64,000 bases of DNA from Myxococcota bacterium (GCA_965223415.1 OZ245002.1:3584001-3648000), one strand, 5' to 3'; positions 33,910 to 64,000 are shown, counted from the first letter of the stretch. Numbers and translations are program-made. The notes: generated by a model from the sequence alone, not told the origin.

Positions 33910-35124
33910 ATGCTTGGCGTTCCGATCCTGGACACCGCCCTCGGCGAGCCCGAACCGGGAATGCCGATCGTGCTCTTCGGTCCGATGGGGTGTGGGCGGA
34001 CGGTGTTCGCGTTGCAGGCGCTGCACGCGGCCGCCGCTCGGGGACGAGCGCGCCCTGCTGCTGACGAGCGAGCCGCCGGCGGTTCTGCTCCGGCAGGCGC
34101 GGGCGCTCGAGCTCGACCTGGAGCCGGCGATCCGCGCCGGGCGGCTGGCGATGGACACGGAGGACGAGCTCGAGAACGCCGGCGCCGTGGCCGAGGCCGC
34201 CGAGGCGGACGGCTTCCCGGTCACCTACCTGGTCGTCGCGCGCCTGGCCCGGGAGCACCCGGAGCTCGCTCGCCGGCTCGTCCGGGAGGGCGAGGTGGGC
34301 AGCCGCGCCGACGGGCACGCGCCCCTGGCGCCCCTCTCCCGAGCCCGGCAACGGGATCGCCTGCGCACCGCCGTGGGCCTCACCGAAGCCGCCGTCGGCA
34401 CCCGCCCCGTGGGCTTCCTTCCTCCCTCCGAGGCCTACGCCGAAGGCACCCAGGCACTCCTCGCCGGGCTGGGCTTCGAGTACCAGCTCGGGGAAGCACT
34501 GCTCGATCGCGCCGTGCCCCGGGTCGAGGAGCTCGGCCCGGGGCCGCGGGCGTTCGTCACGGTTCCGCGCACGACCCCGGATGACGACTTCGAAGTACGC
34601 GGCGGCAACGAGGTTCCGACACGCCTCGCGGAGGCGATGCTCGTTCCGATCGCGCGCAGCCGTCGCGTGGGGGGGCTCCACCATGTCTCGCTCCACACCC
34701 GGACCTTCGGCGCACCGGCCCGGGTGGAGGTCTGCGCCGCCTGGCCCGCGAGCTTCGGGCCCAGGGGGCGTGGCTCGCCACGGGCCGGGAGCTGGCCCGC
34801 TGGGCCCGTGCCACCCACGAAGTCGACGTGGCCTTCCAGGCGCGCGGCCCCCATCGGGTGCGCATTCGCGTCTCCAACCGCGGAGGCGAGACGGTTCACG
34901 GCCTCGCCGTCCGCGTGATCGCGAACCGGCCGATCGTCGGCGGCGAGGTGCACGCCACGGAGGTGATCGAGGCGTTGTTCGCTGCCGGCCCGACGCTGCG
35001 GCCCGCCGGCCAGGACGGTCTCGACCTGCTGCTGCCGGATCTCCGGGCGGGCGCGAGCCGCAGCTACGATCTCGACCTGCAGGAGATCGCGGAGCCTTCC
35101 GCCGCGCGGCACGCGGGCGCGTAG
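33910..35124 (+). pseudogene. Frameshifted fusion remnant: KaiC/RAD55-like ATPase N-terminus joined to a polysaccharide deacetylase-like region
   Basis: LGVPILDTALG..PGMPIVLFGPMGCGRTVFALQ, frameshift near 34045, ERALLLTSEPP..LLRQA, then MDTED..FPVTYLVV..GEVGS..PVGFLPP; further shift near 34730-34830. Confidence 0.65.
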
Positions 35125-35135
35125 AGGAAGCGGCA

Positions 35136-35225
35136 GCCGTCCGCTCGCGTCCGGCGCCGTTCGCCCGCATCCGGTGCCGTTCGCCCGCGTCCGGCGCCGT
35201 TCGCCCGCATCCGGCGCCGTTCGCC
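35136..35225. repeat. 20-bp tandem repeat, about 4.5 copies
   Basis: Unit GCCGTTCGCCCGC(A/G)TCCGG(C/T) starting at 35136 (degenerate), 35156, 35176, 35196 and 35216 (partial). Confidence 0.9.
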
Positions 35226-35364
35226 GGTCCGTCGGTTCGCTCCGGGATGCGGGTACGCGCGGCGGGGCGCCGGGGGCGCGCGAGCGGCGCCCTCGCTCGC
35301 CGGGCGCCGGCACGCGATCTGCACAGGCCTTCGTGACGCCCCACGGTCCCGCTGGAGCGCAACC

Positions 35365-38300
35365 ATGCGCCGATCCGTGCAGGCGGCCCCCTGGCCGTTC
35401 CTCCTCCTCCTCCTCGTCTTCCTCCTCGCCTGTCCCAAGGGCTCCACCATCCCGGCGGGGGACGTCGACTATCAACGTCTCGCGCACCTACCCGTCCCGG
35501 GCGGGGTGGTGAACGGCGCGGGCGGCAACCTGCTGCTGCGGCGGGTCGATCTCTCGATCGATACCCGCCTCGGCACCCGCCGGGTCGGCGCTCGCTACAA
35601 CTCGGTCGACGGGCTCTGGCGCTGGTCCTTCGAGCCCACTTTCGACGGCGCCACCTTCGTCGACGGGAGCGGGGCGCGCCTCGGCGTCGGGGGCGTCGCT
35701 CCCGGCCAGGCCATTCCGGGGACCGAGTGGGTGGTGGTCGACGGGACGACGCTCCAGACGAAGGGCGGCCTCGTTCACGCGTTCCGTCCGGACGGGCAGC
35801 TCGCCCGCATCCACTGGTCGAGCGGTGCCTACCCCTCCCTGGAGCTCGCCTACGCACACAGCGCCGGCGCCGATCGCGCCGTGCGGATCGACCAGTGCAC
35901 CGGACCGGGTGTCTGCAGCCTCGTCTTCGACCTGCAGCGCGACGCCGCAGGACGCGTGGTGGCGATTCAGGACCGCGCCGGCCGCAGCGCCGACTTCGCC
36001 TACGACGCGAGCGGACGACTGGTGGCCGCTCGCGACGGCCTCGACACGGCCAGGGGCTGGAGCGGCCGCTTGTACGGCTACGACGTCGCCGGCCGGCTGG
36101 CGTCGATCACCAACTCCGAGGGCGAGCGCGTCGAGGTCGACCTCGACGCCGCCGGGCGGCTCCTCGAGCTGCGCCAGATCGGCGGCGGCGATCCCACCTG
36201 GCGACTCTCCCACCAGACGTCCTCCCGCCGGACGGAGCTCACCGATCCCACCGGCGCCGTGACGCGGGTGGCCTACGACAGCCGACGCCGCGTCGTCTCC
36301 CGCACCAACGGGGCCGGCGAGGAGACCCTCTTCGAGTGGACGGGCCTGCGACCGACCCGCCGCACGGCGCCCGACGGCACGACGACCGAGTGGACCTGGC
36401 AGAACGACGACATGGCGACGGCGCGCTCTCCGAGCGGGAACGTCGTGACGTTCACCTGGGCGCCCCACGGCGTGAACCGGGCGGATCCCCACCGGCGCGC
36501 CCTGGCCCGTTCCGAGGACGGCCTCGGGCTGATCGAGGAGCGGATCTACGACGCCGCGGGACGCCTCGTCGAGAAGCGCAACGGCGCCGGCGAGGCGACC
36601 ACCTGGGAGTACGGCGCCGACGAGATGGTCGCGCGCAGGACGACACCGGATGGTGTCGTCCTGGACTTCGCGGGCCACGGCGATCACGGCCACCCCACGA
36701 TCGTCACGAACCCCCACGCCACGGTGCACCCGCGCTACGACGCGGTGGGCAACCGCCTCGAGGGCCCGGGCACGGGTGAGGCTGGCGGCAGCGTGGGCGG
36801 CATCGTCGAACGCGCCTTCGACGAGGACCGCAACCTCTCCCAGGTCGTGCTGGCCGACGGCTCCCAGGCAGGGGCGGTGCTGCGGAGCCTGGTCCTCCAG
36901 TACCGCAGCGACCACCAGCGCACGGCGGTCCTGCGCCCCTACGGCGCCGACACGGTCTGGGTCCACGACGCCCACGGCCGCGCGATCGAGCGTCGGGACA
37001 AGAGCCAGGGGGCCTGGGCCTCGACCTCGATCGAGCGCGACCTTCGCGGCCGGGTCGTCGCCCGGGAGCGGCCCAACGGCATGCGGGAGGAGTGGTTCCA
37101 CGACGCCGCCGGGCGCACGATCCGCCACGCGATCCTCCGGGGAGGGCTGCTCGAGAGCGAGGCGTTCTTCGCCTACGCGGCGGGTCGCCTCGTCTCGGTG
37201 AGCGACAGCGCCCACGGGGCCGTGCCGGAGACCCTCAGCTACGACGCCTACGGGCGCCCGGCCCAGGTGAACCACCCCGGTGGCGAGCAGACCTGGCTCG
37301 TCTACGACGCCCGTTCCCGGGTCGTCCTGCGCGGCTTCGGCGACACCGCGACCGGCTTCCTGCGCACGGTCGCGGTGAGCTACGACGCCGCCGGACGCGA
37401 TCGGACACTCTGGGACGGTGCCTCGATGGTTCGGGACCGTCAGTATGCGAACGGGCTCGTCACCCAGGAGAGCTACGGAAACGGCCTGGTGCGTAGCTTC
37501 AGCTACGGGCCGGGCGGCGAGCGCATCGGCGCCGTCACCGTCAACGGGCAGGGCCAGACGATCGAGACCACGGCCGTCACCGAGAGCTGCGCGTTCTTCA
37601 TACCGCTCTGTTGGCACGCGCACACCCAGACGTACGGCGCCGTCTCCGGCGACACCCAGGAGAGCTATCAGCTCCTGGCGGCCACTGACGGCGGACCGGG
37701 GAGCGAAGGCGGCGCGCGCATCGAACGCGGGTTCACCTGGGGCGGCGGCGCCGAGTCCTTCTTCTTCGACGCCCAGAGCAACCGGACCGGCGGCGTGGGC
37801 GCAGCGCCGGTCTGCGGAGGGATCGACACCTGGTCGTTCACCTACGACGCGGAGCGCTCGAGGCTCCTGCAGGCGACGACCGTCACCTGCGGAACCGGAC
37901 ACGCCTATGCCTACGATTCGGCTGGCTTCGTCGTGGACCGCGACGGCGTCTCTCTCGAGTGGGACGGCGCCGGCCGGATCCGCGCCATCGGAGCCGACAC
38001 CTTCGCCTGGGACACGCGGGGACGCCCGCTGTCGCGGACCCTGGGCGGTGTCACCACCACCTGGCGCTTCGGCGGCGCGATCGAGGCCGACGCAGCGGGC
38101 CTGCCCGCCGCCCTCGACCTGGGCGAGGTGCGCATCGCCCTCGGCAGCGGTGCACGGCTCTACCGCCACATGGACTTCCGGCAGAACGTCCGCTTCGTGA
38201 CCGACGACGCCGGGGCGGTGGTCGCCCACTACCGCTACGCGGCGTACGGGGTGCAGAGCGTGATCGGCGATGCCAGCGCCGATCCGGTGCGACGCTTCGC

Positions 38301-38862
38301 CCAGGGACACGACCTGGGTGGCCTCGTCCTCCTCGGGCACCGCGTACTCGACCCGGACGTCGGCCGCTTTCTGGCGCCGGACCCGGTCTTCCAGCTGATC
38401 AACCAGTACACCTACACGATCGGCAACCCGATCGACTTCTGGGATCCGTCGGGTCGGTTCCAGGTCAAGGTCTCGACCGGTCTGGCGGTCGTGGCCATCG
38501 CGGTCGGCCTCGCCGGCACCTTCGCGACCGCGCCGGTGTGGGCTGTCGGGCTCGGCCTCGCGAGCGCGGGGCTCTCGATCGCCTCGCTCGTAGTAGCGGA
38601 GTTCGAGGGCGTCCCGAATCCCGAGCCCGGCTCGACCCCCCAGTGCGGCTGCGGCCCGCCCGGTCCTCCCCGGGGGCCCCCGGGCGGCAGCCCCGGGTCT
38701 GGCGGTGGCGACGAGGCCGGCGCTGATGGCGAGGGCTCGGGCGGATCCGGCGGCACCATGATCAAGACCCTCACCATCGAGGTCGCTCCGGGCGGCAGCC
38801 TGGGGTTCGACTGGAGCTTCGCCCTCGGTGTCGCACTGCAACTCGGAGGATTGAACCTGTGA
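35365..38862 (+). CDS. RHS/YD-repeat protein with lipoprotein signal and C-terminal variable domain (putative polymorphic toxin)
   Basis: MRR..LLLLLVFLLAC lipobox; many YDAxGR repeats; Rhs core PDVGRFLAPDPV..NQYTYTIGNPIDFWDPSG; 135-aa tail. Confidence 0.9.
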   Translation: MRRSVQAAPWPFLLLLLVFLLACPKGSTIPAGDVDYQRLAHLPVPGGVVNGAGGNLLLRRVDLSIDTRLGTRRVGARYNSVDGLWRWSFEPTFDGATFVDGSGARLGVGGVAPGQAIPGTEWVVVDGTTLQTKGGLVHAFRPDGQLARIHWSSGAYPSLELAYAHSAGADRAVRIDQCTGPGVCSLVFDLQRDAAGRVVAIQDRAGRSADFAYDASGRLVAARDGLDTARGWSGRLYGYDVAGRLASITNSEGERVEVDLDAAGRLLELRQIGGGDPTWRLSHQTSSRRTELTDPTGAVTRVAYDSRRRVVSRTNGAGEETLFEWTGLRPTRRTAPDGTTTEWTWQNDDMATARSPSGNVVTFTWAPHGVNRADPHRRALARSEDGLGLIEERIYDAAGRLVEKRNGAGEATTWEYGADEMVARRTTPDGVVLDFAGHGDHGHPTIVTNPHATVHPRYDAVGNRLEGPGTGEAGGSVGGIVERAFDEDRNLSQVVLADGSQAGAVLRSLVLQYRSDHQRTAVLRPYGADTVWVHDAHGRAIERRDKSQGAWASTSIERDLRGRVVARERPNGMREEWFHDAAGRTIRHAILRGGLLESEAFFAYAAGRLVSVSDSAHGAVPETLSYDAYGRPAQVNHPGGEQTWLVYDARSRVVLRGFGDTATGFLRTVAVSYDAAGRDRTLWDGASMVRDRQYANGLVTQESYGNGLVRSFSYGPGGERIGAVTVNGQGQTIETTAVTESCAFFIPLCWHAHTQTYGAVSGDTQESYQLLAATDGGPGSEGGARIERGFTWGGGAESFFFDAQSNRTGGVGAAPVCGGIDTWSFTYDAERSRLLQATTVTCGTGHAYAYDSAGFVVDRDGVSLEWDGAGRIRAIGADTFAWDTRGRPLSRTLGGVTTTWRFGGAIEADAAGLPAALDLGEVRIALGSGARLYRHMDFRQNVRFVTDDAGAVVAHYRYAAYGVQSVIGDASADPVRRFAQGHDLGGLVLLGHRVLDPDVGRFLAPDPVFQLINQYTYTIGNPIDFWDPSGRFQVKVSTGLAVVAIAVGLAGTFATAPVWAVGLGLASAGLSIASLVVAEFEGVPNPEPGSTPQCGCGPPGPPRGPPGGSPGSGGGDEAGADGEGSGGSGGTMIKTLTIEVAPGGSLGFDWSFALGVALQLGGLNL

Positions 38863-39119
38863 GCGACGATGGGAACCGACGGACCGGAGGTGTGCGCCGC
38901 GGCCAGGCGGGGCCCCTGATCGGGCTCGCCGCCACCCTGGTGGTGCTGGGGCAGCTGCGTCACCTGGAGCTGACGTCCGACGGGGGGATGGTCTGGACCC
39001 TCTCCCTGGGCCTCGTCCTCGCGGGATTGGGCCTGCTCAACCTGGTGGTCTGGATGCTCTACCGCGAGGTCCGGAGGCTCCAAGACGAGAGGGAGCTCGA
39101 AGCGCGCACCCGCCGCTGA
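38859..39119 (+). CDS. Small two-TM membrane protein, candidate immunity protein
   Basis: GTGA overlap with the Rhs stop, GGAGG about 9 nt upstream, two hydrophobic helices. Confidence 0.6.
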   Translation: MSDDGNRRTGGVRRGQAGPLIGLAATLVVLGQLRHLELTSDGGMVWTLSLGLVLAGLGLLNLVVWMLYREVRRLQDERELEARTRR

Positions 39120-43028: not shown

Positions 43029-43338
43029 CCGCCTCCGGCTCCCCCCGCCCCCACCCCGCGGGGTAACCCCGGGGAATTTCTCTTGTCTTCGCAGGTGGTT
43101 CGGCGTATACATGCCACTTGCCGAGCCCGGGGTGAGAGTGGCAGGGATGCCACGCTGCCACACCGAGCTGGGGCGGACCGACCCGAATGGGTCGACCGCA
43201 GCGGTGTTAGGGGGAAAGCGCACCGGACGTTCGGTTCGAGTTGTTCGACGCAAGTCGACGTTGCAGAAGGTCGGTAGACGCGATGTCTCCGGCGGTGGCG
43301 TAAGCGCAGCACGGACGGTCCGGGCATCAGGAGGGGTC

Positions 43339-46300
43339 ATGCAGGGAGCTTTTGCGGCTCGCCGGACGCGCGGTGTCGTCGCCGCGATTCTGCTCGTCAT
43401 GGTGTCGATGCCGTCGGCGGCGATCGATCTCTGGGACGGCAAGATCGAAATCCACGGCTTCTACGAGCAGCAGATCCGCTCGATCTGGGACGACTTCAGC
43501 GGCGCGGACGACTGGGACCTGACCCAGTGGTACCACGTGCTGAACCTCGAGATCGAAGCCGACATCGCACCCGACGGTTTCGGTCCCTTCGACCTGGTGG
43601 GCGCCTTCGCCCGCGTCGAGGCCCGCTTCGACTGCGTGTGGCGGCGGGGCTGCTGGATGTTCCCCAACGTCGACGTCTACGGCGATCGCCCCGGGCGGCT
43701 CCCCCGACGCATCCAGAGCGGTCGCGAGAGCGGCTATAGCGGCACCCAGTTCACCGGCGACGTGCGGCGGCCGGTGCCGGACAATATCCCCGGTGCGGCC
43801 TTCCGTTACCGGAACACCGTGGTCCCCGGCTCCCGGATCGCCACCAACGCGGCCGAGAACAACTACCTGAACGCGTTCTTCGGGGCGAGCGCCGGCTTCG
43901 ACGGCGTGATCGACCCCACTTTCCCCGACGCCGACAGCGACGACCCGGCACAGCTCGTCTTCGCGAACCTCGGTGAGTGCCTGTTCGCGAGCAACCGCAC
44001 CCGCGGCCCCGTCGACGGCTTCGGCAACCGTACCCTCATCCACAACATCAAGTGCGAGATCGAGCCGATCAACGACGTGCGGGGCGTGCCGAACCCTTTC
44101 CGCTCCCGCGACTTCAACGAGCGCGTGCTCGGCGGCGCCGGCGGCGGCTCGGCGCTGCCGTTCCGGCCCGCACCCGAGGCCCGCTTCGACGCGGGCGCGC
44201 CGGACCACGTGCCCCACGGCCTCTGGTATCCGAACGAGCGGCTCCAGCAGGCTCTGAAGGACGGCGACTTCGACGCCTTCGACCAGAACTTCACCGTGAA
44301 CGAGCTGCAGTGGAACCGCGGTGCCTCCCAGCAGGACGAGAAGGAGCTGAAGGAGGCCTACCTCGAGCTCGAGATGTTCGACAGCCGGCTGTGGATGAGG
44401 ATCGGCAAGCAGAACATCATCTGGGGCAAGACCGAGCTCTTCAGCACCACCGACCAGCTGAATCCGCGGGACCTGGCCCTCGCCTCCCTGCCCACCCTCG
44501 AGGAGAGCCGCATCGCCCAGTGGGCGTTCCGCGCGGTCTACTCCTTCTACGAAGTGGGCCCCTTCGAGGACGTGCGCGCCGAGGTGGCGCTGATCTTCGA
44601 CCAGTTCGAGCCCAATGACATCGGGCGCTGCGGCGAGCCCTACTCGCCTCTCGTCGCCTGCGGAAAAACCTTCGGCCTGCTGAACCACGGCCAGAACGCC
44701 ATTGGCCTGGCCGGCGAGATCCGCCCGCCGAACCCGTGGAACAGCTGGAAGGGCATCGACATCGGCGGACGCATCGAGTGGCGCTACGACCGCTTCTCCT
44801 TCGCGCTGACCGACTTCTACGGCTACAGCGACCTGGCCTACGCCGATTTGCTGTTCACCTACAGCCGGAACGTCGATCCGAAGAGCGGTCGTCCGCGCCA
44901 CACGAACACCACCGGCAGCTGCCGGACAGGCAGCGAGGACGCGTGTCTCACCACTGACAACGTGCTGCTTCGCCACAGCGCCAACCAGACGGCCTTTGCC
45001 TGGGTCTGTGCCGGCACGGTTGCCGTCTCCGCCCTCGACCCGGCGTCCTGTGCTCAGACGATTTTCAACAGCCAGGTCGTTCCCCCGCCGCCCGCATTCC
45101 TTCCGATCTCGTCGACCTTCTCTGTCATCGGCGCCGGCGACAATGCGAACCCCTTCGGCCTGGGCAGCAGTGTGTTCTGGTATGGCCTTGGCGGTCTGAC
45201 GGGCGTCAACGGCCCCGCCGCCCCCTTCACCGGGACTGCGGCCGCGATCGCGGCCAACGCACCGTTCGCCGTCACCTTCTTCGACGCGGCCACCTTCACC
45301 AACTTCGTGCCGACGATGCTGGTACCGCTGAACGCGGGCCCCAACGACGGGCCTGCCGCGACGACGGCCCTGTTCCCCGCTTCGACCCTGGCGAACATCC
45401 CGAACGTGGGATTCGCCAACGCGGCTCTCGCGTCGGGCCTCTCGTCCTTCCTGACCAACGAGCAGGAGGCACTGCTCGGGTGTGGTCCGTTCTACGGGAC
45501 GAACTGCGACATCCACGGGATCGACTTCCTCAACATGGACGCCAGTGTGTTCTTCGAGTCGTGGCCCGGCGTCCAGGGCACCTTCCTGCCCGGAGGTGCC
45601 ATCTGGGACGCCGCCGACGCCAGCCGCCCGCAGCCCGGTACCCGGGGCTTCATCGGCGAGGTCGTCGGCTACGCCGGCGGCGGATGCACCCTGCCCGGCA
45701 GCCGGGGGCCCGGTGAGCCCTGCTACGACCCGCGGGTCGACGGCTCGCCCGGCGGCGCCGTGCACCCGATCACGGGTCAGCCCTGGCGCAGCGAGATGTC
45801 GATCGTGTCCTGGAACTTCCTGATGGCGCTGGTGGCCCTGAGCCAGGGCGAGCAGGGCACCACCTTCACGCGGGACGACTCGACACGGGCCGACGTGTTC
45901 AACCCGAACCAGCCGTTCCGGACCAATGGCTGCTCCTTCCGCCAGCCGATCTGGTGCTCGAGCGTGAAGGGCCTGCTCGGTCTCTCCGGCGTGACGCGCA
46001 AGAGCATCAAGGCGGGGGGAAACGGGCGCTTCGGTCGCCGCCAGTTCCTCTGGCACGGCGGCAGTGATCTCGTGCTCCGCTACGAGAAGCGCAACGTGCT
46101 CGGCTTCTCGATGGACTTCGCCGAGGACACGACCAAGTCGAACTGGAGCTTCGAGTTCACCTGGCAGGAGGGTGTGCCGAGCGCCGACGCCGACGAGTTC
46201 GACGGCAACTCCGAGATCGACACCTTCAACCTGACCATCTCGGCGGACCGGCCGACGTTCATCAACTTCCTGAACGCCAACCGGACCTTCTTCTTCAACA

Positions 46301-46686
46301 CCCAGTGGTTCTTCCAGTACATCGAGGACTACAAGCAGAGCCACACCCGGACCGGCCCGTGGAACGCGTTCTTCACATTCACCGTCTCGACGGGCTACTT
46401 CCAGGACCGGCTGCTGCCGTCCATGACCTTCGTGTACGACGTCCACTCGAACTCGGGGGCCTGGCTCCCCCAGGTGACCTACCGGTTCACCGAGAACTTC
46501 TCGGCGAGCTTCGGTCTGGGCGTCTTCGCGGGCCGTTGGAAGGAGTTCGACGCTCCGATCAACTCTCCGGGCGCGGGTGCTGACAACCGGGTGGGCAAGG
46601 ACGCCAACAGCCAGTTCGGCGAAGCGGGCCTCTCGGCGGTGCGCGAGCGGGACGAGATCTTCATGCGTCTCCGCTACACCTTCTAG
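43339..46686 (+). CDS. Very large DUF1302-family outer-membrane beta-barrel protein
   Basis: Signal peptide, LKEAYL..RIGKQNIIWGKTELF, NVLGFSMD, ADRPTFI, terminal RYTF; 1115 aa. Confidence 0.8.
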   Translation: MQGAFAARRTRGVVAAILLVMVSMPSAAIDLWDGKIEIHGFYEQQIRSIWDDFSGADDWDLTQWYHVLNLEIEADIAPDGFGPFDLVGAFARVEARFDCVWRRGCWMFPNVDVYGDRPGRLPRRIQSGRESGYSGTQFTGDVRRPVPDNIPGAAFRYRNTVVPGSRIATNAAENNYLNAFFGASAGFDGVIDPTFPDADSDDPAQLVFANLGECLFASNRTRGPVDGFGNRTLIHNIKCEIEPINDVRGVPNPFRSRDFNERVLGGAGGGSALPFRPAPEARFDAGAPDHVPHGLWYPNERLQQALKDGDFDAFDQNFTVNELQWNRGASQQDEKELKEAYLELEMFDSRLWMRIGKQNIIWGKTELFSTTDQLNPRDLALASLPTLEESRIAQWAFRAVYSFYEVGPFEDVRAEVALIFDQFEPNDIGRCGEPYSPLVACGKTFGLLNHGQNAIGLAGEIRPPNPWNSWKGIDIGGRIEWRYDRFSFALTDFYGYSDLAYADLLFTYSRNVDPKSGRPRHTNTTGSCRTGSEDACLTTDNVLLRHSANQTAFAWVCAGTVAVSALDPASCAQTIFNSQVVPPPPAFLPISSTFSVIGAGDNANPFGLGSSVFWYGLGGLTGVNGPAAPFTGTAAAIAANAPFAVTFFDAATFTNFVPTMLVPLNAGPNDGPAATTALFPASTLANIPNVGFANAALASGLSSFLTNEQEALLGCGPFYGTNCDIHGIDFLNMDASVFFESWPGVQGTFLPGGAIWDAADASRPQPGTRGFIGEVVGYAGGGCTLPGSRGPGEPCYDPRVDGSPGGAVHPITGQPWRSEMSIVSWNFLMALVALSQGEQGTTFTRDDSTRADVFNPNQPFRTNGCSFRQPIWCSSVKGLLGLSGVTRKSIKAGGNGRFGRRQFLWHGGSDLVLRYEKRNVLGFSMDFAEDTTKSNWSFEFTWQEGVPSADADEFDGNSEIDTFNLTISADRPTFINFLNANRTFFFNTQWFFQYIEDYKQSHTRTGPWNAFFTFTVSTGYFQDRLLPSMTFVYDVHSNSGAWLPQVTYRFTENFSASFGLGVFAGRWKEFDAPINSPGAGADNRVGKDANSQFGEAGLSAVRERDEIFMRLRYTF

Positions 46687-47107: not shown

Positions 47108-48595
47108 CTAACGGCCCTTCATGAGCTCGTCGGTGGAGGTGAGCTTGCGGAGCTTGCCGGGATCGACGGGGACCGACTGGACGTCGTAGGACTCGCGGCG
47201 CCAGCCGGCGCCGCCGCCGGGGACGTAGTAGAAGACGGCGGCGACCGGGTCGAAGACGCGAGCGCGCTCGCCGCCGGGCCAGGCCGGGTAGCCGGCACGG
47301 TCGCCGCTGAAGCGGTGGACGAGGATGCCGATGTCGAGCAGGAAGCCGTTCTTGCGCTGGGAGATGAAGTAGAGGGGCTGCTGGGTCTGGACGTCGATCC
47401 AGAGGGTCACGGCGGCCACCTGGTCGATCACCTTGCGGGCGCGGCCGCGGATGACGACGGCGTAGCGCACGTCCCAGCGATCGCTCGCTACCGAGAGACC
47501 GGTGGGCCCGTAGTTGCGGTCGCCCTCGTTCGGCCAGCCCTCTTCCTCGCCGTTCAGGGGCGCGAGCACCTCGCGCATGCCGAGCAGGGTCCAGTCGTAG
47601 GCGTTCGGCCGCACGGCGAGGCCCGTGAAGCCCTTGCGGATGTCCTCGGTGGCGGCGAGCAGCAGGCCGGCGGTGGGTGCGATGGCCTCGATGGCGCCCG
47701 GCGTGAACTGGGTGCCCGGCTCGGTCACGAAGGGAACCGAGCCGCCGGCTCCTTCCACGCCGGAGACCGAGTAGCGCGGGGTGTAGATGCCGTCGGTCCA
47801 GGTGCTGGCGGCCCGGCGGGGCTTCCGGAGGTCCGGGACGTAGACGAAGGTGTCGTCGGGCTCGGTGTAGTCCTGGGCCGCCTCCCGGGGGCGGGCCTGG
47901 CGCCAGGCCAGGTGGCGGGCGTTGGTGGGCTCGGTGAAGCGCCCGCCGGCGACCCACTCGGTCTTGGTGCTCTCGGCGACCCGGTAGTCGCTGGCTACCA
48001 GGTCCGAGCGGTGGCCCGTCCGCACGATGTGCCACTCGCCCTCGTAGGTCTGGGGCGTGCCGATGCGGGACGGCATGTCGGTGAGCTGGAAGGTGCCGAC
48101 CGGGCCCGAGCCCCGGTAGCGGTGCTCGAAGTTCCAGGCCCAGCGCATGGCCGCGTCCTGGCTCTCCGGGTCGATCGTCTCGGGCGGGAAGGGCAGGCCC
48201 GCCACGTAGCCGCTCAGGTTGCCCTCGTCGTCGAGCTCCGACCGGCCGCGGAAGGCCTCGGTGGCCTCGCGGTAGAAGTCCGGCACCGGATAGCGCCGGT
48301 GGCAGAAGCCGATGGTCATGCGCATGCCTTCGTAGAAGAAGGCCTCCCGGTAGCTCCAGACCTCCTCCGGCAGGAGCTGCCGGAGGGAGAGCAGGTCCTC
48401 CAGGTTCAGCACCGCCCCCTCCTTCACGAGGGGGGTGCCGGAATCGATCTCAGGCTCACCGGAGGGAGCACCGGTGAAGTCCGGGCAGCGCCCCTCCGGG
48501 GGCAGACCGCTGACGTCGCCGGGGGCGGCCGATCCGGTGAGCAGCAGGACGACGGTCGAGGTGGCGACCAGCCACGGGCGGGGAGCAATGTGCAT
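47108..48595 (-). CDS. DUF1329-family exported protein (LolA-like fold)
   Basis: AGLPFP..DP..AAMRWAWNF, DDTFVYVPDLRKPRR, YDWTLLGMREVLAP, WIDVQT. Confidence 0.8.
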   Translation of the reverse strand: MHIAPRPWLVATSTVVLLLTGSAAPGDVSGLPPEGRCPDFTGAPSGEPEIDSGTPLVKEGAVLNLEDLLSLRQLLPEEVWSYREAFFYEGMRMTIGFCHRRYPVPDFYREATEAFRGRSELDDEGNLSGYVAGLPFPPETIDPESQDAAMRWAWNFEHRYRGSGPVGTFQLTDMPSRIGTPQTYEGEWHIVRTGHRSDLVASDYRVAESTKTEWVAGGRFTEPTNARHLAWRQARPREAAQDYTEPDDTFVYVPDLRKPRRAASTWTDGIYTPRYSVSGVEGAGGSVPFVTEPGTQFTPGAIEAIAPTAGLLLAATEDIRKGFTGLAVRPNAYDWTLLGMREVLAPLNGEEEGWPNEGDRNYGPTGLSVASDRWDVRYAVVIRGRARKVIDQVAAVTLWIDVQTQQPLYFISQRKNGFLLDIGILVHRFSGDRAGYPAWPGGERARVFDPVAAVFYYVPGGGAGWRRESYDVQSVPVDPGKLRKLTSTDELMKGR

Positions 48596-48660: not shown

Positions 48661-49578
48661 GTGAACCGTCGCTCGATCGGCTTTCCCCTCGCGGTCGGCA
48701 TCACCCTGATGGTGCTGGCGCTGGTGCTCGCTGTCGGCTGGCAGGTGCTGGTGGTGGGAGACCTCGGGCCGGTGACGCGCGGGCTCACGGCCGTCCACTG
48801 GACCTTCCTGATCCTGGGATCGGCCTTCTTCGTGCTGATCATCGTGGGGCTCCTGCTGCTGATCGTGTGGCTGGTGCGCGAGATCCGCCTCAACCAGCGC
48901 CAGCAGGCCTTCCTCGACGCGGTGACCCACGAGATGAAGACACCGCTCGCCTCCCTGCGGCTCTACGTCGAGACCCTGGGACGCCACGATCCGGCGCCGG
49001 ACCGGCGCCGGGAGTTCCTGGGCCGCATGGGGGAGGACGTGGAGCGCCTGGAGCGCACGGTCAACCAGGTGCTGATCGCCGCCCGGGCGGACGCGCGGGC
49101 CAAGGCGCCCGACGAAGTGACGGACCTGACCCAGCTCGTGGCCGAGGTGGCCGAGGAGATCCGCGGCCACTACGGGCTCGCGCCCGGGGCCATCGTGCTT
49201 CCCCGGCGGGCGCCGCTCCCGGCCCTGGGCGATCCGGGCGAGCTGGCGGTGGTGGTGCGGAACCTGCTCGAGAACGCCGTGAAGTACTCGGCGCCGGAGG
49301 TCTCCATCCGCGTCGACCTGGAGCGCGTCGGGGATCGCGTCGAGCTGGTGATCGCCGACCGGGGCATCGGCATCGCCGCTGCCGATCTCGGGCGGATCTT
49401 CGACCGCTTCAGCCGGGTCGGCCGGGACGTGCAGCGCCAGGCGGGCCTCGGGCTCGGGCTCTTCATCGTCTGGAACCTCGTCCGCCGCAACGGCGGCCGG
49501 GTGGTGGCGCGCAGCGAGGGCCTCGGGCGGGGCAGCGAGTTCCGCGTGAGCCTTCGCGCTGCGGAAGCCGGGGCCTAG
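48661..49578 (+). CDS. Sensor histidine kinase (HisKA, HATPase_c), two TM, short loop
   Basis: AVTHEMKTPL, NLLENAVKYS, DRGIGI, FDRF, GLGLGL. Confidence 0.95.
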   Translation: MNRRSIGFPLAVGITLMVLALVLAVGWQVLVVGDLGPVTRGLTAVHWTFLILGSAFFVLIIVGLLLLIVWLVREIRLNQRQQAFLDAVTHEMKTPLASLRLYVETLGRHDPAPDRRREFLGRMGEDVERLERTVNQVLIAARADARAKAPDEVTDLTQLVAEVAEEIRGHYGLAPGAIVLPRRAPLPALGDPGELAVVVRNLLENAVKYSAPEVSIRVDLERVGDRVELVIADRGIGIAAADLGRIFDRFSRVGRDVQRQAGLGLGLFIVWNLVRRNGGRVVARSEGLGRGSEFRVSLRAAEAGA

Positions 49579-49614
49579 CGCCGTGCTCGATGCCGTCGAG
49601 GCCAGCGCCTAGCC

Positions 49615-50319
49615 GTGTCGCGGATCGTCGTCGTGGAGGACGAGGCCCACATCGCCGACGGGCTGGCCTTCAACCTGGAGGCGGAAGGCCATGAGGTGGT
49701 GGTGATCTCCGACGGGGCGGAGGCGGCGGAGCGGCTCGGAGGGCCCGACCGCGAGGCGTGCGACCTGGTGATCCTCGACCTGATGCTGCCGGGCCTCTCC
49801 GGCCACGAAGTCGCCCGGCGCGCCCGCGCCGCGGGCAACTACGTCCCCATCTTGATCCTCACTGCCAAGGACGCCCCGGCCGACGTGGTCCGCGGCATCG
49901 AGGAGGGCGCCGACGACTACCTGACGAAGCCCTTCAAGCTCGACGAGCTGCTGGCGCGGACCCGCTCGCTGCTGCGCCGCCGGCGCTGGGACGGGGCCCG
50001 GAGCGAGGACGACGGCGAGAGCGAGCTGCGGCTCGGGCCCGTCTGCGTGCGCTTCGATCGCTTCGAGGTGGTGGGACCGGACGGCGTCCAGCCGCTCACC
50101 CCCCGCGAGGTGGGTCTCCTGCGCGCGCTCCTCGACCGGGAGGGCGAGGCCGTGAGCCGCGGGGAGCTGCTCGAGAGCGTCTGGGGCCTGCACCCGGAGA
50201 CGCGCACGCGGGTCGTCGACAGCTTCGTCGTGCGCCTGCGCCGCTACCTGGAGCCGGATCCGGCCCGGCCCCGCCACATCGTCTCGGTCCGCGGCCACGG
50301 CTACAAGTTCGTGCGCTGA
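49615..50319 (+). CDS. OmpR-family response regulator
   Basis: VVEDE, ILDLMLPG, LTAK, GADDYLTKPF, winged helix TRVVDSFV..LRR..VRGHGY. Confidence 0.96.
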   Translation: MSRIVVVEDEAHIADGLAFNLEAEGHEVVVISDGAEAAERLGGPDREACDLVILDLMLPGLSGHEVARRARAAGNYVPILILTAKDAPADVVRGIEEGADDYLTKPFKLDELLARTRSLLRRRRWDGARSEDDGESELRLGPVCVRFDRFEVVGPDGVQPLTPREVGLLRALLDREGEAVSRGELLESVWGLHPETRTRVVDSFVVRLRRYLEPDPARPRHIVSVRGHGYKFVR

Positions 50320-62892: not shown

Positions 62893-64000
62893 GTGGACGC
62901 CCATTCCCCGAACGTGGAGCTGCTGGAGACGGGCGTGCGGCTCGGCCGCACGGGGCGCGCGGCGTCCTTCGTCGCCTACCGCGATCTCCTGCACGTCGTG
63001 GGCATCGGACGGGGCCTCCGGCTCGCCACCGCGCGCGGCGTCCTGGCCGTTCCCCGCAGCGCCGGGGAGCCGCCTGCGGCGCCGATCGCCGCCGGCCAGG
63101 CACTACGGGAGCGGGTCCTGGCGCTGCCGGACGGCTCCGAGCGGATCCGCCGCATGGAGGACCTGGATCTCCTGATGCTGCGCGCGGGTCCTCCGCGGCT
63201 CAGTCAGGCCATCGCGGCACTCTGTGTCACCGCCTTCGCGCTCCAGCTGTGGATTCCCGGCTTCACCGAGCAGGGCGCCCTGCGGCCCGGCTGGCTGGCG
63301 GTGGAGCCCTGGGGTGCGGTGACGGCCCACTTCCTCCACGGGGCCTTCGCGGGCTTTCCCGCCTTGCTGTCGCCGCATCTGATCCTGAACGTGCTCTGCC
63401 TGCTCGGCCTCGGCGCCTTCGTCGAGCGCATGCTCGGCCAGGCGCGGACCGCGGTCGTTCTGCTGGCGGCCGGCGGCGGCGCGGCCCTCGCGTCCCTCGT
63501 CGCCGACTACGTTCGGGTCGTCGGCGCCTCGGGGCTGGTGATGGGGCTCGCCGGTGCCCTGGTCGTCCTGGAGTTCGGCCGGCCCGAGCGCATTCCGGCC
63601 CCCTGGCGGTTGCCGCGACGGCTGCTCATCGGCCTGCTGGGGGCGGACCTGTTGTTGACCGGCTTCATCCCCGACGTTGCCCACGCCGCCCACTGGGGCG
63701 GGCTCACCGCCGGCGGCCTCGCGGCGTGGCTCGCGACCTCCGACCCGGTGCCTCTCGCCCCTCCGCCCCGCTGGGTCGTGGCCGGCGCCGGGCTGGGTCT
63801 CTTCTCGGTGGTCGTGGCCGGGGCGGGCCTGGGCTGGGCCGTTCTCGACCCCGGCGCCGCCAGTCTCCGCCGCGCCGCCTACCTGGCCGACGATCCCGAC
63901 GCGTCTCCCGGGCTCCTGAACGACGCCGCTTGGACGATCGCCATCTCGGACGCGCCGGATGCGGAGCTGCTGGCCGCAGCGGAGGAGATGGCCGAGCGGG
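62893..64000 (+). CDS. Rhomboid family intramembrane serine protease (runs off the 3' end; start uncertain)
   Basis: Translated by eye from GTG 62893: TAHFLHG, HLILNV, VVGASGLVMG (catalytic Ser), AHAAHWGG (catalytic His), LLNDAAW. Confidence 0.85.
   Translation, partial: MDAHSPNVELLETGVRLGRTGRAASFVAYRDLLHVVGIGRGLRLATARGVLAVPRSAGEPPAAPIAAGQALRERVLALPDGSERIRRMEDLDLLMLRAGPPRLSQAIAALCVTAFALQLWIPGFTEQGALRPGWLAVEPWGAVTAHFLHGAFAGFPALLSPHLILNVLCLLGLGAFVERMLGQARTAVVLLAAGGGAALASLVADYVRVVGASGLVMGLAGALVVLEFGRPERIPAPWRLPRRLLIGLLGADLLLTGFIPDVAHAAHWGGLTAGGLAAWLATSDPVPLAPPPRWVVAGAGLGLFSVVVAGAGLGWAVLDPGAASLRRAAYLADDPDASPGLLNDAAWTIAISDAPDAELLAAAEEMAER

Follow-up and report, generated by a model that had tools for sequence, protein, structure and literature searches.

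In a 64,000-nucleotide stretch of the genome of a Myxococcota bacterium (GCA_965223415.1, OZ245002.1:3584001-3648000; this whole stretch is referred to as the window, and positions count from its first letter), two overlapping genes encode an Rhs/YD-repeat protein with a putative lipoprotein signal and a hydrophobic C-terminal tail (the query protein) and a small protein with two transmembrane (TM) helices, here named orf86. With moderate confidence, and on the strength of sequence comparison, we interpret the pair as a two-gene toxin-immunity module, in which an Rhs cage exported by Sec and the lipoprotein pathway would carry a membrane-active hairpin, orf86 would act as a two-TM immunity protein, and no type VI secretion system (T6SS) would be involved; by analogy, the module would resemble Tse5/Tsi5 and the teneurin-like protein (TLP) of Bacillus. 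We favor this interpretation because of the Rhs core with its protease motifs, the conserved lipobox cysteine, the absence of the T6SS core genes encoding TssC and Hcp from the genome, a hydrophobic hairpin in most of the tails read in relatives, the local divergence of this hairpin, and downstream partner genes that track the tail. Duplicated partner genes at two related loci (L034 and L047), and one genome (G020) in which a divergent Rhs gene and a different partner lie between conserved flanks, argue in the same direction. The features of the two genes are collected in Table 1.

Table 1. Features of the Rhs gene, its tail and orf86 (window positions; aa, amino acids; GC2 and GC3, GC fraction at second and third codon positions)
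Feature	Position	Strand	Basis or remark
Shine-Dalgarno-like GGAG	35355..35358	+	7 nt ahead of the Rhs ATG; read in the sequence
Rhs/YD-repeat gene (putative lipoprotein)	35365-38862	+	1165 aa; open frame, family matches, GC3 0.91, GC2 0.55
Type II (lipoprotein) signal peptide-like N-terminus, lipobox L-L-A-C23	35365..35433	+	pattern and Cys conservation only
Rhs shell, aa 24-1030, Cys pairs C178/C184 and C742/C749	35434..38454	+	Pfam/NCBIfam matches, alignment
Rhs-associated core, aa 958-1030, aspartyl autoprotease motifs LDPDVGRF, APDP, DPSG	38236..38454	+	TIGR03696 Rhs_assc_core, 42.2 bits (cut-off 32.5)
DPSG, aa 1027-1030, predicted C-terminal self-cleavage site	38443-38454	+	sequence motif
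135-aa tail (putative cargo)	38455..38859	+	follows DPSG; no Pfam or NCBIfam family
Hydrophobic, small-residue-rich helical hairpin, tail aa 2-54	38458..38616	+	hydropathy
CGC motif, C1094 and C1096 (aa 1094-1096)	38644..38652	+	invariant in a 3-sequence tail alignment
C-terminal strand-like hydrophobic end, MIKTLTIEV ... GGLNL	38755..38859	+	without the TM+Arg signal common among relatives
Shine-Dalgarno GGAGG	38845..38849	+	9 nt ahead of the orf86 GTG, within the 3' end of the Rhs gene
orf86, 86-aa two-TM protein, candidate immunity/partner	38859..39119	+	start overlaps the Rhs stop

No in-frame start codon lies between the preceding stop and the Rhs ATG. Lipoprotein signals follow the lipobox pattern [LVI][ASTVIL][GAS]C, preceded by an n-region and an h-region. 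The query protein begins with MRR (two arginines), continues with a 12-residue hydrophobic run and reaches L-L-A-C23, a lipobox by pattern, whose cysteine column is kept in at least 90% of the 112 family members aligned; because of the pattern and this conservation, we assign a putative type II signal peptide (SPII), in agreement with a first-pass annotation of this DNA that had described such an N-terminus. The same annotation had reported the absence of recognizable PAAR, VgrG or WapA domains. Pfam (E<=0.1) indeed returns RHS_repeat (PF05593; E 1.6e-34, five stretches) and no further family, hence no PAAR, VgrG, WapA-type or NHL domain and no recognizable adhesion domain either, and the NCBIfam model YD_repeat_2x (TIGR01643) matches at 97.5 bits. 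Multiple RHS/YD repeats and an Rhs core ending in DPxG with the conserved aspartates are both present. The paired shell cysteines (CTGPGVC, C178/C184, and CAFFIPLC, C742/C749, the latter confined to a subclade), the intact core and the DPSG motif, all noted in the first pass, were recovered, TIGR03696 scoring above its cut-off. In the protein database, a PF25023 (TEN_YD-shell) label is precomputed for the query and for every family member; this label was reproduced neither by direct hmmscan (E<=0.1) nor by a genome search with the PF25023 model.

The query belongs to a family that is large and apparently undescribed, no description being found in a full-text literature search of incomplete coverage. 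Of 8000 candidates scored in a word-indexed search, at least 2814 proved to be relatives at E<=0.001. The best 120 of the 2814 are 1121-1273 aa long and 41-57% identical, and the named ones among them are 'RHS repeat-associated' proteins from Myxococcota or Deltaproteobacteria metagenome-assembled genomes. In the conservation alignment, built from 112 of these 120, D1006, P1007, D1027 and G1030 are invariant, D996 is kept in at least 90% of the sequences, and the C178/C184 pair occurs in 92 members; this cysteine pair suggests an oxidizing, extracytoplasmic location of the shell. Among close genomes, 28 of 41 have a match, almost always in one copy. In an even sample of the phylum (E<=1e-60), 30 of 47 other genomes of the same order were positive and none of 253 genomes of other orders, both counts being a floor because of a stricter first look in that search. 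Within the same genus, the Rhs proteins share 42-56% identity. Preserved synteny was found only in G020, where the flanking genes are 64-79% identical, the Rhs protein 39%, and the partner is a gene of the CPBP protease family, not orf86. Compared in this way, the Rhs gene is fast-evolving, order-specific and present once per genome. The loci of species-representative genomes considered below were collected by an alignment-based scan; related genomes are non-independent samples, and some loci from different collections possibly represent the same organism twice (L042/L117 and L124/L125, which have identical tails).

The host genome consists of one contig of 5.83 Mb and is 97% complete, and the Rhs gene is single copy in it (tblastn). 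The first pass had seen no T6SS genes in the window; TssC (PF05943) and Hcp (PF05638) have no match anywhere in the whole 5.83-Mb genome, and T6SS independence is therefore supported genome-wide, beyond the window. With neither a PAAR/VgrG-binding N-terminus nor TssC/Hcp in its genome, the query is not a T6SS Rhs effector. Delivery by outer-membrane exchange, which had been suggested as a route, found no support: of the two proteins with a PA14 domain that the genome encodes, one is a GH3-like enzyme and the other a propeller/PA14 protein, and neither is TraA-like (no dedicated TraA/TraB search was made).

The tail that follows DPSG has first a pair of segments, at tail aa 2-31 and 32-54, that are strongly hydrophobic and rich in Gly, Ala and Ser; next come an acidic Pro-rich turn, the CGC motif, a Gly/Pro-rich low-complexity linker and a strand-like hydrophobic end (tail aa 116-130). 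Both sequence and hydropathy confirm the layout of hairpin, CGC, linker and hydrophobic end described earlier. Against Pfam and NCBIfam, the tail has no match at E<=10, including TIGR03901 and the glycine-zipper families PF05433 and PF13488. Using phmmer against 1.84 billion representatives, the only genuine match was the closest Rhs relative (E 1.4e-4), and the tail was not found on other delivery scaffolds; a match to P0125, a cadherin-repeat protein hit through a repeated strand, was discarded as spurious. Searches of the PDB with the tail alone or with a 3-sequence tail profile gave nothing relevant at E<=10, and the best ESM Atlas scores (0.80 for the tail, 0.87 for orf86) were under the lead level of 0.9.

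To place this tail within the family, we read the tails at 64 loci of species-representative genomes (66 examined, two of which run off contigs) and at all but one of 18 metagenome loci. In 57 of the 64 tails, the first 85 aa contain 30 or more hydrophobic residues, usually as two helices, and a low-complexity Gly/Ser/Pro linker comes after the hairpin. The end of the tail is formed by a cysteine, a hydrophobic helix and an Arg/Lys cluster in 47/64 loci and, by regular expression, in 99 of the best 120 database proteins, with terminal motifs of the type GC[SA]P..L or CGLGFE; CxC is found in 13/64. The query and its nearest relatives end otherwise, with CxC, a K-x-L-x-I-x-V-like strand and a Gly/aromatic or Gly/aliphatic terminus. 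In the query itself, the C-terminus (...GGLNL) has no basic cluster, and the MYXO-CTERM-type layout of Cys motif, TM helix and Arg is consequently absent. The tails of three relatives have no NCBIfam or Pfam match at E<=10, TIGR03901 included. In a glycine-zipper check of 14 relatives' tails, the hairpin of L036 reaches Gly-zipper_Omp (PF13488; 25.3 vs 25 bits) and the tail of L040 is just under the cut-off for 'Glycine zipper 2TM'. As judged from sequence and hydropathy, the tails share one hairpin architecture family-wide; they differ in sequence, not in kind, and do not include assorted enzyme toxins. A comparison of homologues had been proposed in the first pass as a check on whether tails and downstream open reading frames (ORFs) vary: the tail sequences and the partners do, the hairpin architecture is constant, and no domain swap is seen.

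The divergence of the hairpin is local in some close pairs of loci. A clear local break is seen in three of seven such pairs (L052/L067, L039/L055 and L038/L049), in which nucleotide identity is 0.8-0.9 in the shell, 0.34-0.58 in the hairpin and linker and ~0.82 in the C-terminal signal. At the DPxG boundary, the break in similarity is sharp in three of the seven pairs and missing in the others, and the tails remain alignable. The ratio of nonsynonymous to synonymous change (dN/dS) in the hairpin is 3.04 for L038/L041 (few changes), 1.67 for L038/L049 and 0.13-0.37 for the remaining five pairs; two of these have a dS that is much higher in the hairpin than in the shell (1.23 vs 0.48 and 1.53 vs 0.88), which fits cassette exchange between diverged alleles. 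The hairpins of L086/L088 and L045/L063 have not diverged beyond their shells. At the level of these sequences, the evidence for diversifying change in the hairpin is real but mixed.

The downstream genes co-vary with the tails. At 46 of the 64 loci, a same-strand membrane-protein gene starts between -60 and +200 nt from the Rhs stop, often with a 4-nt overlap. By our own assignment, which uses simple hydropathy and GC3 filters, the downstream position is taken by a membrane ORF of 72-266 aa without a family at 34/64 loci, by a member of the rhomboid family at 10/64, by an Rce1-like CPBP protease at 2/64 and by an ORF without a TM helix or an unrelated enzyme at 4/64, and nothing is nearby at 14/64. 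Clustering by blastp divides the 60 partner ORFs (59 loci and the query) into 26 groups, of which 19 have a single member, and these clusters follow the tail type; for example, a 12-member partner family goes with Gly-rich zipper-type hairpins, whether the tail has the sorting-like end or a Gly/aromatic terminus. Two loci carry tandem duplicates of the partner ORF, L034 (7096-7533 and 7728-8096, both full) and L047 (7103-7663 and 7697-7939, the second truncated), an arrangement that resembles immunity-gene arrays.

In the query locus, the GTG start of orf86 and the TGA stop of the Rhs gene share GTGA. The composition of orf86 is coding-like (GC3 0.90, GC2 0.47), and its product has two hydrophobic helices and a charged C-terminal helix. 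Homologues were found, by inspecting the DNA behind related Rhs genes, directly downstream at four other loci (L032, L033, L116 and L131), and orf86 is therefore more than a chance ORF; the orf86 family thus stands behind all five loci of the query subclade for which DNA context is available. Residues P19, Q32, N61 and W65 are invariant in the helices of this family. The 86-aa two-TM ORF noted in the first pass is confirmed in this sense. A word-indexed search with orf86 returned itself alone, and nothing in Pfam or NCBIfam was above any cut-off. The similar-looking 2-TM family of the L044 type was considered as a possible relative and rejected, homology being unsupported (hhalign probability 2.4%). 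The two TM helices with a charged C-terminal helix, a weak match of orf86 to the holin model NF037944 (E 0.018, sub-threshold) and a sub-threshold match of the L096 partner to Phage_holin_3_6 (E 0.003) would also suit a role other than immunity, such as a holin-like release factor or a membrane chaperone for export or loading of the hairpin. We regard such a role as very improbable, since all holin matches are far below the curated cut-offs and the partner families are non-homologous between subclades, which would be unusual for a machinery component.

The rhomboid and CPBP genes among the partners, together with the Cys+TM+Arg signal of relatives, go beyond the first-pass annotation, as does the order-wide presence of a single copy amid housekeeping genes. 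Rhomboid genes lie behind the Rhs gene at L038, L039, L041, L043, L049, L051, L053, L055, L061 and L070, and CPBP genes at L082 and L091; they often overlap the Rhs stop, and the corresponding Rhs tails end in GC[SA]P..L, a TM helix and RRRR. The best NCBIfam match of the rhomboids is rhombosortase, below the curated cut-off. For the CPBP proteins, the best sorting-protease match is MrtS/MrtJ and the top NCBIfam match overall is an ABC-permease/CPBP fusion model, all below cut-off. These relatives may carry a new pairing of sorting signal and protease.

Such a pairing would suit a non-toxic envelope protein, i.e., a lineage-specific periplasmic or surface Rhs structure that is held to membranes by its N-terminal lipid and its tail (through the hairpin and, in most relatives, also a cleavable Cys+TM+Arg sorting signal), with orf86 and the other downstream proteins as accessories for assembly, sorting or anchoring and the rhomboid and CPBP proteins as sorting proteases. 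This alternative, the main rival and one that we consider somewhat unlikely, would be in keeping with the single copy in a housekeeping context, its occurrence in 30/47 genomes of the order vs 0/253 outside it, the conserved tail architecture, the strongly hydrophobic hairpin, and the ten rhomboid and two CPBP genes found adjacent with sorting-protease matches below cut-off. It would likewise be in keeping with the Cys+TM+basic end of the 47 tails, a layout of the MYXO-CTERM type (PMC11980579). However, an envelope structure leaves the invariant self-cleaving residues ahead of the hairpin unexplained, as cleavage would sever the shell from its anchor, and it explains neither why 26 unrelated partner families track the hairpin type, not the C-terminal end, nor why the hairpin diverges so abruptly while its flanks stay conserved; moreover, the query and its subclade do without the terminal TM+Arg signal. 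Canonical Rhs structures have the first residue past the cut within the shell. The same is described for BiTLP, the teneurin-like protein of Bacillus inaquosorum (PMC13018210), and with the post-cleavage residue in this position, 8 residues could not reach the membrane.

As a plausible mechanism for the toxin-immunity module, we infer the following sequence of lipidation, cleavage, encapsulation, membrane activity, immunity and delivery. The first gene would produce a Sec-exported, N-terminally lipidated Rhs cage, whose aspartyl autoprotease would cut after DPSG and leave the 135-aa tail; the active part of this tail would be the hydrophobic, small-residue-rich two-helix hairpin. In the producer cell, the hairpin would be held in or on the cage. 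In a target cell without the partner gene, it would enter the cytoplasmic membrane, so that the membrane potential is lost or the membrane is permeabilized. The second gene, orf86, would supply a translationally coupled, two-TM inner-membrane protein that neutralizes the hairpin in the membrane of the producer. Delivery would proceed without a T6SS, with cell contact, shared outer-membrane material or vesicles as candidate routes. The T6SS-independent, lipid-tethered cage with a membrane-active tail and a partner that the first pass had envisaged fits the comparative data and has experimentally studied parallels in Tse5 and BiTLP; where the picture differs is in the tails, which vary in sequence but are of one kind.

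Several other observations weigh against a toxin. All tails being of one kind is unlike classical Rhs loci, in which enzymatic toxins are swapped, and no relative of the query tail is detectable outside its own Rhs clade, nor does it match any family. The fast change of the hairpin can reflect how weakly a TM hairpin and a low-complexity linker are constrained, and in three of the seven close pairs the hairpin evolves no faster than the shell (dN/dS 0.13-0.32), with two more pairs at 0.34-0.37. The 19-residue Kyte-Doolittle means of the helices reach up to ~1.8, and SecYEG might insert such a hairpin as an anchor. A sorting-like Cys+TM+Arg end, as in most relatives, is odd for a caged toxin. 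No partner ORF is adjacent at 14/64 loci, and ten have a rhomboid only. Finally, the gene is single copy, has an order-level distribution (30/47) and lies among housekeeping genes, and neither tails nor immunity genes occur as orphan modules; a structural protein specific to the lineage could be distributed in this way, too.

The variability of the tail could also serve recognition or adhesion rather than killing, in a teneurin-like or TraA-like device whose tail is an identity of self or non-self read on contact. One fast-evolving copy per genome in an order of a social phylum, and a hypervariable cassette within an otherwise conserved protein, are both compatible with this, as are the TraA-type surface signal of relatives (PMC11980579) and the account of YD-shell proteins as ancestral to adhesion receptors (PMC13018210). 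We nevertheless find recognition of this kind quite improbable: what varies is a hydrophobic hairpin, which by prediction lies buried in the cage or in the membrane and offers no exposed binding surface, the diverse coupled membrane partners are better explained as neutralizers, and there is no recognizable adhesion domain. A bolder version of the toxin interpretation, which at present seems rather unlikely to us, combines identity with killing. In it, each genome throughout the order would encode one identity toxin, representing a new class of delivery: a self-cleaving Rhs lipoprotein with a hypervariable hairpin that in most members is processed at the new Cys+TM+Arg signal, the protease being a dedicated rhomboid or CPBP enzyme. 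Lipid would tether both the cage and its cargo in the outer membrane, from where they would be passed on by touch or in vesicles, and cells without the matching partner would be depolarized. If true, uncultured Myxococcota of marine and sediment habitats would thus discriminate kin without a needle.

Among known systems, Tse5 (RhsP1) of Pseudomonas aeruginosa offers a close parallel in design for the two-gene module. Tse5 is an Rhs protein with C-terminal aspartyl self-cleavage and an encapsulated, depolarizing, pore-forming tail, which has no enzymatic domain, only predicted TM and amphipathic helices; Tsi5, the small protein that confers immunity, is predicted to have two TM helices and is recovered in the inner-membrane fraction (PMC10684867, PMC9637101). 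The query likewise combines an Rhs protein and a hydrophobic tail with a small two-TM partner. In contrast to the query, which has a putative lipoprotein signal, no PAAR or VgrG and no TssC/Hcp in its genome, Tse5 begins with a PAAR-like region and depends on VgrG and the H1-T6SS for its firing. Sequence similarity between the query tail and the Tse5 tail was not found.

By sequence, the nearest solved structures are the T6SS Rhs effectors 8h8a and 7q97, and 9pt5. The last is full-length BiTLP (PDB 9PT5/9IFO), in which a hydrophobic C-terminal domain, predicted to contain a TM region, is cut at the Rhs motif yet stays concealed by the YD shell; this domain causes growth inhibition and entry of propidium iodide only if a signal peptide directs it to the periplasm (PMC13018210). 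According to the same source, an immunity gene follows almost all TLP genes, TLPs are mostly one per genome, those of Myxococcota are predicted SPII lipoproteins, and bacterial YD-shell proteins are ancestors of adhesion receptors. The query resembles TLPs in its predicted export as a YD/Rhs shell, the same protease motif, the hydrophobic tail, the downstream gene and the mostly single copy. It is not a TLP by the definition of this paper, since the TLP superfold comprises an FN-plug, NHL and a YD-shell in ~2000 aa or more, and the query has no NHL match and is half the size (1165 aa). The HMMER alignment to 9pt5 runs from the core into the tail and places C1094 of the query opposite C2216 of BiTLP, which is described as a disulfide-forming cysteine bonded to the plug, with C719 as its bonding partner (PMC13018210). 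Because the tail alone and the tail profile miss 9pt5 (E<=10), we treat this likeness of the tails as a resemblance or an extension of the core alignment, not as homology.

With classical polymorphic Rhs, WapA and TcC toxins, the query shares RHS repeats, the Rhs core, the DPxG boundary and a tail-coupled downstream gene; unlike them, the family has one tail architecture and no interchangeable enzymatic domains, orphan modules or multiple copies. In the kin discrimination of the myxobacterium Myxococcus xanthus, Rhs4 and Rhs5 have signal sequences, act T6SS-free, are ~4000 aa long and lie in prophage-like elements (PMC10433427), and the SitA proteins are lipoprotein toxins, not Rhs, with downstream immunity genes and TraAB-dependent transfer by outer-membrane exchange (PMC5562445, PMC8546572). 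The query is like the former in being an Rhs protein with a putative signal sequence and no TssC/Hcp in its genome, and like the latter in being a putative lipoprotein with a downstream gene in Myxococcota. It differs from both in being a chromosomal single-copy gene of another order, with no TraA-like protein recognized among the PA14 proteins of its genome.

The ends of most relatives, though not of the query, recall the MYXO-CTERM/myxosortase and GlyGly-CTERM/rhombosortase systems in having Cys, a TM helix and Arg, in some cases with a rhomboid or CPBP gene (PMC11980579, PMC3237569); MYXO-CTERM is a tripartite C-terminal signal, of the kind that puts TraA on the surface (PMC11980579). They differ from these systems in that the motifs of relatives are unmatched by NCBIfam (E<=10) and the proteases are below cut-off, and the query tail lacks TM+Arg altogether. 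Small-residue-rich hairpins that depolarize membranes and are countered by membrane immunity proteins are also known from CdzC/CdzD, EsxX, TspA and Tse4 (PMC5380434, PMC12744356, PMC12169545). Such glycine-zipper toxins are carried by other routes (like type I secretion, or by type VII secretion or the T6SS), and not by an Rhs lipoprotein. The query hairpin has no Pfam glycine-zipper match.

That an Rhs/YD cage can hold a hydrophobic tail that damages membranes, with a membrane protein conferring immunity, is already published as a principle, and YD-shell toxins of Myxococcota exported through SPII are among the published cases. The best-known Rhs cages are warheads of the T6SS or parts of Tc toxins that carry enzymes. 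Here, a compact Rhs cage would be tied to the lipoprotein pathway and, in an order of mostly uncultured Myxococcota, it carries a fast-changing hairpin with a matching membrane partner. The novelty would lie in the combination of a compact Rhs lipoprotein without accessory domains, one hairpin architecture throughout the order with one copy per genome, co-varying partners and, in most members, a Cys+TM+Arg signal with proteases. If the toxin interpretation is true, pore formers of the Tse5 type and exported toxins of the TLP type would extend to a two-gene design free of a secretion system, and dozens of natural hairpin/partner pairs would become available for studying how membrane toxins and immunity proteins recognize each other. 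The C-terminal sorting signal of the relatives, with rhomboid or CPBP enzymes as the paired proteases, may be new as well.

The host genome holds some observations on this signal that do not involve its Rhs gene. A PA14-domain protein of ~800 aa (L112; G000:C1, ~3,085,600-3,087,900, minus strand) ends in ...ACGLGAELLPVLAVLGAVRRRLRG, that is, Cys, a TM helix and Arg, and this ending of the CGLGFE/CGLLGIE type is shared with the Rhs relatives at L052, L058, L059, L062, L067, L083, L089 and L097. The host thus has a Cys-type C-terminal sorting signal on other proteins, not on its own Rhs protein. In a search of the host genome, TIGR03901 (MYXO-CTERM) gave no match, the control also giving no match anywhere; a hidden Markov model of the C-terminal signal of relatives (98 sequences) reached an unconvincing best E of 0.019 against the six-frame ORFs of the genome, and the CPBP matches of the myxosortase core model were all sub-threshold. 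Five rhomboid-family genes are present in the host, none of them adjacent to the Rhs gene, the nearest lying 24 kb downstream at 63304-63735 (+).

The neighbors of the Rhs gene are housekeeping genes. Upstream are genes for arginine decarboxylase, histidyl-tRNA synthetase and an FG-GAP repeat protein and a polysaccharide-deacetylase-like ORF; downstream follow a nucleoside-phosphorylase-family gene on the opposite strand, topoisomerase I and a DUF1302/DUF1329 pair. The members of this pair, at 43330-46686 (+) and 47108-48595 (-), stand beside a two-component system (48661-50319) and have no visible connection to the Rhs gene. An antisense ORF of 1117 codons (35488-38841, minus strand) spans the whole Rhs gene; we dismissed it as a high-GC artefact rather than a gene because GC content is 72% and both the family matches and the GC3 signal are on the plus strand. 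Ahead of the Rhs gene and in its frame, an ORF of 98 codons (34828-35124, +) has a third-position GC of ~0.9 in the frame plot and no family match; its beginning shares sequence with the last part of the deacetylase-like ORF, and it may represent either a small gene or, after a change of frame, the real 3' end of that upstream gene. A gap of 447 nt separates the deacetylase-like ORF from the Rhs gene; within it, at 35131-35225, 4.7 tandem copies (89% matches) of a 20-nt unit, CGGCGCCGTTCGCCCGCATC, form a repeat that could be regulatory.

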